Shown: one piece after another, positions 8,564 through 11,839 of the stretch
Layout of the letters: each line of letters begins with the position of its first letter
How positions within the stretch are numbered: the first letter of the stretch is position 1
DNA from: a virus
Direction: 5' to 3' (one strand)
Length of the DNA: 64,000 bases
Virus record (IMG/VR): IMGVR_UViG_3300027747_004722
Coordinates: 1 to 64,000 of that record
Notes under the pieces: generated by a model
Databases searched by the model: none
What the model was told of the DNA's origin: nothing
The model's input: only the letters and a program-made list of their open reading frames with translations
Made by a program: the position numbers and the translations under genes

Positions 8564-9124
8564 TCAGTCCTTGCCGCCGAGGTAGTCGTACTCGGAAAGC
8601 GAGACCATTCCCGTCCTGATGCTCTTCTCCCTCGTGATCTTCTTCCCGAGCGACTTCTGCGCGTTCCAGGTGATCGCCTTGCAATAGGTGATGAACTTGG
8701 CGTCCATGCGGAGGGCGGCGCGCCTGTCCGGCCTCTGCTTGTTGGGAACCAGCGACCTCACCAACTTCTCGAGCATCTTCTCCTGGTGCGGGCCGAACTT
8801 CTGCTTGTTGGCCCCGTGCCGGGTCTTGTTCTTCCACAGCCCCGCGAGCTGTTTCACGACGGACTTGATCACCTCGTCCTTGGCGCTCTTCTTGCAGAGC
8901 TCGAGGCAGTCCTCTATGTAGCACTGGCGCTTGTAGTACGACGCCGCGCGCAGCAGGGCTATCCGCATGTCCTGGGCTATGTCCTCCTGGCTGTCGGTGT
9001 GGTTGTTCCTCGTGTTCTTCTTGATTAGCTGCCACGCCTGGTACTCGCACAGCTCGCCGAACTTGTCGTTGAGGATGGCGTACTCCTCCTCCGTGACCGG
9101 GAACGAATCGTGTATGTGTTTCAT
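8564..9124 (-). CDS. Sigma-70 region-2-like protein with internal insertion
   Basis: EDIAQDMRIALLRAA resembles region 2.2; KFITYCKAITWN resembles region 2.3; about 70 aa lie between them. Confidence 0.45.
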   Translation of the reverse strand: MKHIHDSFPVTEEEYAILNDKFGELCEYQAWQLIKKNTRNNHTDSQEDIAQDMRIALLRAASYYKRQCYIEDCLELCKKSAKDEVIKSVVKQLAGLWKNKTRHGANKQKFGPHQEKMLEKLVRSLVPNKQRPDRRAALRMDAKFITYCKAITWNAQKSLGKKITREKSIRTGMVSLSEYDYLGGKD

Positions 9125-10413
9125 TCTTCAACTCCTGTTCTAAGTGGTTTCATGTCGTCCAGGCGGGCGCCGTGGACGCACGAGGTCCTCAGCCCGAGGC
9201 CGGGGAACATCGGATCCTCCTCCTCGAGAACCCTCGTGCCGACCTCGAAAACTTCGCCGACCTTGTTCTTGGCGCATACAACGCAGTATCCGTCGTGAAC
9301 GTGGAAGCACGACCTCGCGAGCCCCGACAAGGAGCCGTGGAGGCGTACGAGCTTCCTGAGACATATCATGCTGGCAGGGGACTGCACGGAGAAGTTGCGT
9401 ATCTTGTAGAGCTCTCGCTCCTCGAACCGACGCCGCCTCCCGAAGAAGTCCACGGCCATGTTGTCGCCATCGGGCGACTGGGAGGTTACCCAGTCAAAGG
9501 CGACAGGAAAGGCATCAACCAGCGTATCTATGATTCTGGAAGCAATTTCTTCCTTGATCCCCGTGCGGGACGCCAGCGACCGCGGGCCCTGGCCGAAAAC
9601 CACGGGCAGGAACACGTCCTTGCAGGTCTTCCTGTTGCCCTCCGTCGCCTCGGAGCGGATGACCCGCGACCATATGGCCCTGTACGGGTCGTCCCCCGAC
9701 TCCAATATCGACCCCAGGGCGGGGTCGCCGGAGAGCCACTGGAGGACGTTCACCTCCATGTTCCTGTAGTCGAAGTACACGAAAACCTCGTCGTACCCCG
9801 GGGGGCGCAGGTTGGCCTTCTGCTCCGCACCCATGGAATGCGGGTTGTAGTGGCCATCCGTCGGGACGACGGCCTTGAGGCGACCGTTGGCCTGGCCCTC
9901 CACCACGTAGGACGGGTACACGCATCGGCGCTTCGAGTTGTCCACCAGGCAGCAGGTCTCCATGTCGGGGAGGACGGAGGACACCAGCGGGAGGTAGACC
10001 TCCGTGTAGAAGGGCTTGAACGCGCCCCAGCCCGGGTGCCCGACGAGCCTCTTGAGGAGCCTCACGGCCTCGGGGAACGAAGAGGGAACCTCGCAATCCA
10101 CGGACAGGTAGGAGGAGATCACGGAAAGGTCGTAAAGGAAACCGCCCATCTCCATGGCCATCTCGGTGCGGGACTTCAGGAACGAGAAGACATCCTTCGC
10201 CGACCAGGAGATCAGGAACCTGTCGTTGTCCAGAAAGTGCTGTATGGACGCCGCCAGGTACGAGAGGGAAAGGTTGTCGGAGCAGGGGACCACCGCCCTC
10301 CCGCCTCCGAAATGGAAACGGAGCTCGGAGTCGGAGGCCCTCCCGGGATCGAACATGTAGAAATATATGTCATGTCCCCTGAGGCGGGACATCACGTCAG
10401 CCACTTCTGCCAT
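9121..10413 (-). CDS. Atypical compact family A DNA polymerase
   Basis: Motif A DYRNME, motif B RKTCKDVFLPVVFG, GRRRRF, NFSVQSPAS, motif C HVHDG; start uncertain (10413 or 10425). Confidence 0.85.
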   Translation of the reverse strand: MAEVADVMSRLRGHDIYFYMFDPGRASDSELRFHFGGGRAVVPCSDNLSLSYLAASIQHFLDNDRFLISWSAKDVFSFLKSRTEMAMEMGGFLYDLSVISSYLSVDCEVPSSFPEAVRLLKRLVGHPGWGAFKPFYTEVYLPLVSSVLPDMETCCLVDNSKRRCVYPSYVVEGQANGRLKAVVPTDGHYNPHSMGAEQKANLRPPGYDEVFVYFDYRNMEVNVLQWLSGDPALGSILESGDDPYRAIWSRVIRSEATEGNRKTCKDVFLPVVFGQGPRSLASRTGIKEEIASRIIDTLVDAFPVAFDWVTSQSPDGDNMAVDFFGRRRRFEERELYKIRNFSVQSPASMICLRKLVRLHGSLSGLARSCFHVHDGYCVVCAKNKVGEVFEVGTRVLEEEDPMFPGLGLRTSCVHGARLDDMKPLRTGVEE

Positions 10414-10609
10414 CGCCACGATCATAACCGGCGCGTGGCGATATTGAAATGCGTCCGGCCTTGGTGTTCTTGTGGAGCGAGTAGAGGAGACTCCTGTTGA
10501 TCTCTCCAAGTTCCTTGCCGTAGAAGAGACTCACGGCCTCCCGATACTCCATGCCCTTCCTCTCCGCGAGCCTTCTGATGTGCCTTCTTGTTTTTTTCTT
10601 GCTGCTCAT
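10397..10609 (-). CDS. Small basic protein (70 aa)
   Basis: MSSKKKTRRHIRRLAERKG...; overlaps the polymerase start. Confidence 0.5.
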   Translation of the reverse strand: MSSKKKTRRHIRRLAERKGMEYREAVSLFYGKELGEINRSLLYSLHKNTKAGRISISPRAGYDRGDGRSG

Positions 10610-10649
10610 TAGAAAATACTTGTGTAAGATTTGACAAACCACCCCTGTT

Positions 10650-11050
10650 TCACCCTAGAGAAGGGGCCTTCCCTCTGGGTACCCACTTAAAGAAACATAA
10701 TACCTATTGGCTCATGTCTCCCCAGTCTGGTGTACTTTGAGGTACGCCGACATTCCGATTGCCCGAACCCCTCCACCTGTATTATGGCGATCTTTTGATC
10801 TGGTACCCTTTTTCGGACCGTGACCCAGGCCCACGACGCATCGACTAGCGTCGGGTTACACGGCAAAGCACGGATCTCTCCGCGCCAAAAGACCTTTCTA
10901 CAGGCGACTCAGCCTCCTCCGTCATTGGCTATGCGAGTTTCAACGCAAAGGCTTAGGGACCGGGGAAGTATGATCCCCGTGGCTCCGCGATCTCTCGAAC
11001 GCGGACTCGAAAATGTTCTCCATTCGAATCTAGTTCAGGTTGAAGTTTTT
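10650..11050 (-). ncRNA. Candidate structured non-coding RNA (strand and ends approximate)
   Basis: No credible ORF; many stems; GNRA loops (GAGA, GCAA) and G-U pairs read correctly on the minus strand. Confidence 0.45.
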
Positions 11051-11131
11051 TGCTTTTCGTTATAGGTTATTGCAGGTTTTCCGCAGACGCAAAACATAAC
11101 TAGATTCATCCGGAGGGGCAATACCGAAATC

Positions 11132-11839
11132 ATGAGAGAGCTCGAGCCCATCATCGAATACAGCATGGACGCCAACGAGGCCAAGGCCTACAAGATAGCG
11201 CTCATGTGGCAGGACGAGTGCCGAAGGGAGATACCGAATGAGCCTTACGCGAGACTGAAGGCGGGATCGGACCCGAGGAGGTGCCTGCTCTTCAAGCACT
11301 GCTTCAAGCTGGCGAGGGAGATGAAAGGGATACTGGAGGACTCGGAGATATCCCTGTACATCAGGGCCCAGATACAGATGCTGAAGGCCATCAACGACGG
11401 TCTCGTGCACGCCCTGATAGAACCCCACTGCCTCACGGGCGACAAGGCCTGGAGAAGGTGGAAGCTCTGGAAGCACCGATACGAGAAGATGATATCCCGC
11501 CCGCGTTCGCCTTCGGACGCGTCCATACGCCCGAGCGACAGGAAGGCGAGGTCGGAGATATCCGCCTCGCTGGCATTCCTCGAAGAGGCCGGATGCACGG
11601 ACGCCTCCGCCTTCCGCGACAGGGCCGAGGACGTACGCAGGTGGGTCAAGAGCGGCAGGCTGTCAGGATTCTACGCGACGCTCTCGCCTTGGGTGCGGAA
11701 ATTCGTCGGAGACCCGTCCGAAATGGGCTTCGACCACGGCTACTACAGGGCCGCCGCCACACCGGAGATAGAGAGGTTCTTCAGGGAGTCCTTCCCCCAC
11801 GAGTTCGACCCCGGGAGGGAACCGTGCCTAGAAGCCTAG
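11132..11839 (+). CDS. Hypothetical protein
   Basis: 235 aa, backbone-like codon usage, GGAGG upstream. Confidence 0.75.
   Translation: MRELEPIIEYSMDANEAKAYKIALMWQDECRREIPNEPYARLKAGSDPRRCLLFKHCFKLAREMKGILEDSEISLYIRAQIQMLKAINDGLVHALIEPHCLTGDKAWRRWKLWKHRYEKMISRPRSPSDASIRPSDRKARSEISASLAFLEEAGCTDASAFRDRAEDVRRWVKSGRLSGFYATLSPWVRKFVGDPSEMGFDHGYYRAAATPEIERFFRESFPHEFDPGREPCLEA

Follow-up and report, generated by a model that had tools for sequence, protein, structure and literature searches.

A gap of 520 bases between divergent genes of a huge tailed phage encodes a structured RNA on the minus strand. The fold is shared by a small group of half-megabase bacteriophages, in which it is maintained by numerous compensatory mutations, and matches no Rfam 15 family. 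The window analyzed here, a 64-kb stretch of DNA, comprises the first two thirds of a 99,015-bp IMG/VR virus record that CheckV rates 20% complete; it encodes a tail sheath protein, ribonucleotide reductase, a DnaB-like helicase-primase and a short family A polymerase, and is therefore a fragment of a very large tailed phage. The gap (10610-11131) is flanked on the minus strand by a 70-aa ORF, the PolA-like gene and orf186, and on the plus strand by orf235 and an epimerase gene (Table 1). A sequence-only reading had noted that the largest intergenic region, at 10650-11050, folds like a structured RNA on the minus strand, and this observation is confirmed. The element is, however, larger than originally delineated, extending from a promoter at 11093-11121 to a pseudoknot strand at 10664-10669, with a predicted RNA length of about 425 nt in the window and 346-532 nt in relatives.

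Covariation support for the fold and the pseudoknot

All the stems listed in the sequence-only reading are present on the minus strand. Four of these are supported by covariation in relatives, namely, 10775-10781 with 10899-10905 (H5), 10818-10826 with 10853-10863 enclosing CGACGC/GCGTCG (H8 and H9), 10869-10884 (H7) and 10961-10979 (H1). Two others, 10753-10767 and 10984-11005, are real hairpins in the window but lie in variable regions where every relative has some hairpin of a different sequence. The strand assignment is also correct: the minus strand folds better than the plus strand, with z-scores of -2.61 against -1.16 for the whole gap, and -1.77 against -0.72 for the 220-nt core. Thermodynamic stability alone is weak evidence, given that 13 of 200 shuffles fold as well as the core, and would not carry the claim.

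The decisive evidence is covariation. RNAalifold applied to a plain MAFFT alignment of the 8 GC-richer sequences, with no model fitting, predicts 61 pairs, of which 22 have changes on both sides. In this alignment, 91.4% of cells pair, against 33-49% when the 3' partners are slid by 1-3 columns, the slid controls contain only 4-10 compensatory pairs, and none of 500 shuffles reaches the observed covariation score. With 13 sequences, in an alignment that was model-fitted and hence somewhat favored, 94% of cells pair (33-51% for slid partners across the two alignments) and 32 of 53 pairs are compensatory; with 14 sequences and a hand-set structure projected from the window, the respective values are 86% and 25 of 33. 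Many of the G-C to A-U changes follow the split between GC-rich and AT-rich clades, which also produces spurious covariation between unrelated columns; a brute-force search for further tertiary pairs was swamped by this signal. For this reason, we rely primarily on the slid-partner controls and on the within-clade result for the 8 GC-richer sequences.

Ten helices are supported by covariation, including every long-range pairing drawn in the sequence-only reading, although the support for H10 is weak (Table 1). They are arranged as a 5' hairpin domain followed by a core closed by three nested long-range helices (H2, H5 and H6), which close a three-way junction formed by H7, the H8/H9 arm and H10. 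The single-sequence minimum-energy fold of the window recovers the same architecture.

Table 1. Features of the RNA locus and its neighbors, in window coordinates
Position	Strand	Feature	Observations
11132..11839	+	Divergent neighbor orf235, unknown function	Synteny conserved in all relatives
11116..11121	-	-35 element of the putative RNA promoter (TTGCCC)	Just inside the gap next to the start of the divergent gene
11093..11098	-	-10 element (TATGTT)	Identified by phylogenetic footprint; transcription start near 11086 inferred from spacing
10985..11086	-	Variable 5' domain, including hairpin CCGCG-N10-CGCGG at 10985-11004	Every relative has a hairpin of different sequence at this position
10960..10979	-	H1 hairpin (CGGGG-loop-CCCCG); stem 10976-10979 with 10962-10965	Three of 4 modeled pairs change on both sides
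10954..10958	-	H2 5' strand, pairs long-range with 10767-10771 and closes the core	Four of 5 pairs have compensatory changes
10911..10952	-	H3/H4 arm: H3, 10948-10952 with 10911-10915; H4 hairpin, 10943-10947 with 10932-10936	H4 replaced by other hairpins in the AT-rich relatives
10900..10905	-	H5 5' strand, pairs long-range with 10775-10780	All 6 pairs have changes on both sides
10887..10894	-	H6 5' strand (GGUCUUUU), pairs long-range with 10789-10796 and closes a three-way junction	Six of 8 pairs are compensatory
10869..10884	-	H7 hairpin with GNRA tetraloop (CGCGGA-GAGA-UCCGUG)	All modeled pairs covary; loop is GAGA, GAAA or GGAA in most members
10818..10863	-	H8/H9 arm, with CCGUG-UA-ACCC, the GACGC hairpin with a UAGU loop, the internal loop and GGGUCACGG; H8, 10853-10863 with 10818-10826; H9, 10848-10852 with 10835-10839	Most conserved part; CCGUG/CACGG becomes CCAUG/CAUGG in the AT-rich relatives and CCAAC/GUUGG in L176
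10827..10832	-	Pseudoknot 5' strand (GGGCCU) inside the H8 internal loop	Covaries with the 3' motif in five sequence variants
10807..10817	-	H10 small hairpin (UCC-GAAAA-AGG); 10815-10817 with 10807-10809	Weak support; expanded in the AT-rich relatives
10767..10796	-	3' strands of H6 (10789-10796), H5 (10775-10780) and H2 (10767-10771)	
10680..10766	-	Variable linker, including the window-specific hairpin UUCGG-GCAA-UCGGA (10753-10767)	Poorly alignable between relatives; length varies by tens of bases
10664..10679	-	3' motif: mini-hairpin CCC-AGA-GGG (10671-10679), then pseudoknot 3' strand AGGCCC (10664-10669)	Once per locus and only at this place; covaries with 10827-10832
10397..10609	-	70-aa basic protein with a helix-turn-helix-like core (RRHIRRLAERKGMEYREAVSLFY)	Conserved in 13 members; no Pfam or PHROG family
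9121..10377	-	Family A polymerase-like gene, short form	Pfam DNA_pol_A at 2.2e-19; phrog_17
8564..9124	-	orf186, very conserved protein of unknown function, last gene of the cassette	84-95% identical where PolA is 57%; 685 clusters in public data

About 160 nt downstream of the core, every member contains one copy of a motif of the form CC-N3-GGGA-(A/U)-GGCCCC. We considered that this motif could be a generic terminator or promoter, but it occurs nowhere else in any locus. RNAalifold folded it locally, but the local helix shows no covariation. Instead, its last strand is complementary to the invariant internal loop of H8, forming a pseudoknot of 6-9 bp in which the two strands change together. 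The core loop and 3' motif strands are, respectively, GGGGCCU and AGGCCCC in the GC-rich group; GGGGCGU and ACGCCCC in loci L149 and L148 (L numbers denote individual phage loci); GGGGUAUA and UAUACCCC in L147; AGGGUAUA and UAUACCCU in L150; AAGGGUUUU and AAGGCCCUU in L151; and CGGGGU and GCCCCG in L176. Cognate strands form 6.9 pairs on average, against 4.8 between different variants, in a comparison for which two of the strings were corrected by hand from the alignments. In the window, the fold therefore extends to within about 55 nt of the next start codon.

The sequence-only interpretation, that this is a structured RNA on the minus strand but not a tRNA, tmRNA or RNase P RNA, is supported. 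ARAGORN finds no tRNA or tmRNA in the window. Searches against Rfam 15, which includes group I and II introns, RNase P, tmRNA, 6S, SRP, ROOL, GOLLD, HEARO, OLE, raiA and riboswitches, yielded no match at the gathering score in the 64-kb window, none at E<=10 in 10400-11300, and none at E<=1 at the RNA in the loci of ten relatives. Neither of the two outcomes named in advance as refuting, folding no better than GC-matched shuffles with no covariation or an untranscribed DNA origin, was borne out: covariation is strong, the gap contains no iterons, and in a complete relative the locus is not at a GC-skew extremum.

Distribution of the RNA and its genomic neighborhood

We identified 14 distinct copies of the RNA, one per phage record. 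A BLAST search of the region against deposited phage genomes found no match, and a scan seeded on the orf235 protein found nothing, but a PolA-seeded scan detected two syntenic loci with a gap of the same size, the alignment of which revealed a near-invariant core (CCGTGTAACCCGA ... GGGGCCTGGGTCACGGTCC) amid about 57% protein identity. Scans of viral and metagenome contigs for the core motif, filtered with nhmmer, brought the total to 8 distinct sequences; the metagenome scan returned 119 stretches, nearly all of them chance hits, with only four holding the RNA, one new (L104) and three identical to copies already found. Scans seeded on the highly conserved orf186 added five AT-rich members that score 65-77 bits with the covariance model R1. 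One more copy (L176:1100-1243) was found in G006, a 527-kb record rated 100% complete by CheckV, with a second model, R2, a poor one built on a MAFFT alignment that retained only 12 pairs. The homology of this copy rests on a 31.7-bit hit (E 0.002-0.03), together with the architecture, checked by eye, and the 3' motif. Models R1 and R3 detected no further members in 59-70 more distant loci of the same broad phage clade, in 10-locus searches with filters off, or in ten large phage records. Thus, the family, as far as it can be detected, consists of one subclade plus G006, and the relatives include records of 340-527 kb. In contrast, the polymerase and orf186 are far more widespread, occurring in 176 viral loci.

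A sigma-70-type promoter, TTGNNN-N16/17-TANNNT, is present in the orientation of the RNA in all 14 members, at the same place directly beside the start of the divergent gene. It is canonical in relatives, with TTGACA-16-TATAAT matching 12 of 12 consensus positions in L176 and TTGACT-16-TACAAT matching 10 of 12 in L150, whereas the window's own copy, with a 17-nt spacer, matches only 8 of 12 and is not called by the promoter scan. The promoter also indicates a bacterial host. We considered that AACCTATAA or CTATNATAACCTA could be a reused phage promoter, but it is not repeated elsewhere. No terminator-like site was called in the window or in three relatives, and there are 1-5 U in the 8 nt following the 3' motif, depending on the member.

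In 13 members, the RNA heads an apparent operon encoding the small helix-turn-helix-like protein, a thumb-less PolA and orf186, and the next start codon lies only 40-60 nt downstream of the fold, with no recognizable promoter between them. The possibility that the small protein is a lambda-N-like arginine-rich antiterminator was dropped because the alignment shows a conserved helix-turn-helix-like core. In G006, the arrangement is different: the RNA, complete with promoter, core and 3' motif, is followed 20 nt later by the stop codon of a convergent pyruvyl-transferase gene (Pfam 3.6e-13), and PolA starts about 1 kb away behind its own short divergent intergenic region. The small protein was not found in G006, although this is weak evidence because the search returned an empty answer.

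A stand-alone RNA, a leader and other interpretations

The comparative data show a large RNA fold on the minus strand with ten helices, a pseudoknot that ties the near-invariant arm to a motif far downstream, and a conserved sigma-70-type promoter site; transcription, early and by the host RNA polymerase, as well as the ends, length and stability of the RNA and any function, are inferred from sequence alone. It seems somewhat more likely than not that the RNA folds into one compact globular particle and acts in trans as a stable non-coding RNA, most likely as the RNA part of, or a decoy for, a yet unidentified protein complex, with the invariant loop and the pseudoknot serving as the recognition surface. 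In this view, in most members, the RNA would be made as the first part of the transcript that also carries the small protein, the accessory thumb-less PolA and orf186, and would require processing or inefficient termination, whereas in G006 it would be a stand-alone gene. The stand-alone arrangement, however, rests on this one genome.

The main rival, which we consider less likely, is a cis-acting leader, that is, the 5' untranslated region of the operon, controlling it through folding-dependent read-through, ligand or protein binding (for example, autoregulation by the small basic protein) or mRNA stabilization. The position immediately upstream on the same strand in 13 of 14 members, the absence of a promoter-like site between the fold and the ORF in the window and the lack of a conserved intrinsic terminator are what would be expected of a leader. 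Furthermore, in some members (L104, L008 and L148), the pseudoknot 3' strand can instead form a local hairpin followed by 4-5 U, which would be mutually exclusive with the pseudoknot, as in a riboswitch expression platform. This hairpin and U-run are not conserved, however, with only 1 U in L149 and L150 and differing folds, and the local hairpin, unlike the pseudoknot, does not covary. No riboswitch family matches, a size of 350-530 nt with about 10 helices is far beyond known leaders of this kind, and in G006 the RNA is separated from PolA by a convergent gene.

A replication-origin transcript, with the folded RNA forming or being processed into a primer or R-loop as in the case of ColE1 RNA II or T4 oriF/oriG, for use by the adjacent accessory polymerase and DnaB-like helicase, is very unlikely. 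The RNA does lie in the replication module, beside the PolA-like and DnaB-like genes, at a point of divergent transcription with a small local dip of cumulative GC skew at 10-11 kb. However, there are no iterons or direct repeats beyond chance 9-12-mers, and the gap is not AT-rich (GC 0.56). In the complete G006 genome, the cumulative GC skew peaks at about 52 kb and bottoms at about 517 kb, whereas the RNA, at 289 kb, lies on the monotonic slope. A primer, moreover, needs no pseudoknotted globular fold with invariant loops.

Also very unlikely, if attractive, is the hypothesis that the RNA is a dedicated partner of the thumb-less family A polymerase, as its template, primer or specificity subunit, by analogy with the structured non-coding RNAs encoded just upstream of defence reverse transcriptases and retrons. 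The RNA is directly upstream of, and co-oriented with, this short polymerase gene in 13 of 14 members. Related divergent thumb-less PolAs (divPolA) are suspected of non-replicative roles (Yutin et al. 2024, PMC11348598), and G006 has a separate DnaE-type Pol III alpha and no PolB, so that the PolA is accessory, like the divPolA proteins described in that study. Against this possibility, the RNA is decoupled from PolA in G006 and is far less widespread than the polymerase. More broadly, it is not excluded, although unlikely, that the RNA is the nucleic-acid subunit of a new phage ribonucleoprotein built with the small protein, the polymerase and/or orf186, for example an RNA-primed or RNA-templated polymerase that would be a PolA-family counterpart of the retron or defence reverse-transcriptase RNAs, or else a new ribozyme.

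A highly divergent RNA of a known family (RNase P RNA, in the size range of which it falls, tmRNA, group I intron, 6S, SRP or ROOL/GOLLD) is very improbable given the lack of Rfam and ARAGORN matches, and a protein-coding gene is excluded because an 81-aa antisense ORF (10820-11065, plus strand), despite tblastn hits in some relatives, is not kept open (the longest stop-free stretch is 36-60 aa in several members, with 36 aa in L151, 48 aa in L008 and 52 aa in L148) and substitutions follow base-pairing rather than codons.

The nearest known RNAs are ROOL and GOLLD, large structured non-coding RNAs often carried by phages and prophages, which are likewise several hundred nucleotides long, multi-helix, of unknown function and recognized by covariation rather than by a known activity. 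The resemblance is one of kind only: there is no match to either covariance model, and the present RNA is smaller than GOLLD, is not next to tRNA genes here and is restricted to one clade of about 0.5-Mb phages. We regard it as a new family. 6S RNA (ssrS) of E. coli, co-transcribed with ygfA, is a stable RNA made as the promoter-proximal part of a transcript that continues into protein genes and then released by processing, the arrangement inferred here for 13 of 14 members. However, 6S RNA is a single long bulged hairpin of about 180 nt that mimics open promoter DNA, whereas the present RNA is branched and pseudoknotted and does not match the 6S models. Riboswitch or attenuator leaders and the lambda pL-nutL-N leader share the position between a promoter and a small basic regulatory protein gene and, in a few members, a possible alternative pairing of the last strand. 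The present RNA lacks a conserved expression platform, is much larger and is detached from the operon in G006, and the small protein looks like a helix-turn-helix protein rather than a bare arginine-rich peptide. The ColE1 RNA II pre-primer is also a folded transcript of several hundred nucleotides beside replication functions whose structure matters, but there is no evidence of an origin here and no antisense partner or RNase H logic that could be tested. A catalogue of candidate structured RNAs from IMG/VR (PMC10690425), based on the same data source and the same kind of evidence, holds motifs of 29-151 nt and at best could include a sub-domain of this RNA. No description of this RNA was found in the literature searched.

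Large, intricately folded RNAs with no known function are rare and historically have turned out to be ribozymes, ribonucleoprotein scaffolds or self-assembling particles. The comparative support in this case is unusually clear for a family of only 14 sequences, and the RNA belongs to half-megabase phages whose biology is almost unexplored, in most members at the head of a cassette that includes an atypical polymerase and a strongly conserved protein with no known family. The coordinates, secondary structure, pseudoknot, probable promoter and covariance model make the RNA directly amenable to experiment and provide a handle on the function of the neighboring polymerase cassette. In a neighboring subclade, loci L177, L206, L209 and L210 carry a different conserved element of about 300 nt, apparently structured, in the same slot, with a GNRA hairpin and a CUAGUU-loop hairpin that recall H7 and H9, so that this genomic position may generally house an RNA gene.

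Genes downstream of the RNA

The protein encoded by orf186 is 84-95% identical between phages in which PolA is only about 57% identical, has 685 homologue clusters on contigs of up to 634 kb, and belongs to no Pfam or PHROG family. This is a strikingly constrained unknown protein. Two orf186 homologues from genome contigs (loci L225 and L226) lie on a 546-kb contig binned as an "uncultured Bacteriovoracaceae" MAG and on a 6-kb contig binned as "Nitrosotalea". These are most likely phage contigs swept into bins, so they are not evidence of a host.

The 70-aa basic protein is conserved in 13 members, and its core, RRNIRRLAERKGISYKEAILKFY...LDKNLVYSL, looks like a helix-turn-helix, whereas the N-terminal extension varies and the AT-rich members add Lys-rich tails. 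No family is known for this protein. The PolA-like protein is short (about 420 aa), and the Pfam match covers only model positions 101-362 of 381. The complete relative, G006, additionally encodes two DnaE-type Pol III alpha matches and no PolB, so this PolA is probably accessory. In L176, the RNA locus of G006, an ORF with a weak GIY-YIG domain match (E 0.004, below the Pfam cut-off) lies between PolA and orf186.

Coordinates of the features in the window and in related loci
Feature	Locus	Position	Strand
orf186	window	8564-9124	-
PolA-like gene	window	9121-10377	-
70-aa basic protein gene	window	10397-10609	-
Inverted repeat, two arms	window	11026-11035 and 11098-11107	
Promoter-like site	L150	2391-2419	-
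Promoter-like site	L150	2385-2412	+
Conserved non-coding element, neighbouring subclade	L177	2470-2900	
Conserved non-coding element, neighbouring subclade	L206	2502-2900	
Conserved non-coding element, neighbouring subclade	L209	1277-1680	
Conserved non-coding element, neighbouring subclade	L210	2506-2910	
Conserved ORF-free stretch	L154	2640-3070	
Conserved ORF-free stretch	L155	2660-3070	
tRNA gene	L148	7529-7601	+

Conserved elements at the same position in other phages

A neighbouring phage subclade (loci L177, L206, L209 and L210) carries a different conserved non-coding element in the same slot. For this element, RNAalifold predicts 86 pairs, of which only 7 are compensatory, given that there are just 4 close sequences. 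The predicted structure includes a UACCGAAAGGUA hairpin and a CGG-CUAGUUA-CCG hairpin that resemble helices H7 and H9 of the RNA in the window. The element may be a remote homologue. Two AT-rich distant relatives (loci L154 and L155) share yet another conserved ORF-free stretch at the same position (for example, ACCGTGGCAGAAGGATTAACA ... GAACGGT), which is matched by none of the models.

Promoter region and genome context

The window contains a perfect 10-nt inverted repeat (GAATCTAGTT / AACTAGATTC), one arm of which overlaps the promoter spacer and the -10 element. This repeat is present only in the window and its closest relative, and could be an operator. In L150, another locus that carries the RNA, promoter-like sites for the RNA and for the divergent orf235 gene overlap face to face, which suggests that the two transcription units compete or are co-regulated.

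Across the whole G006 record (527,112 bp), the cumulative GC skew has a single maximum near 52 kb and a minimum near 517 kb, and long ORFs switch from mostly plus-strand to mostly minus-strand at about 60 kb. In one AT-rich relative (L148), a tRNA gene (Rfam tRNA, 45.9 bits) is located about 2.5 kb downstream of orf186.
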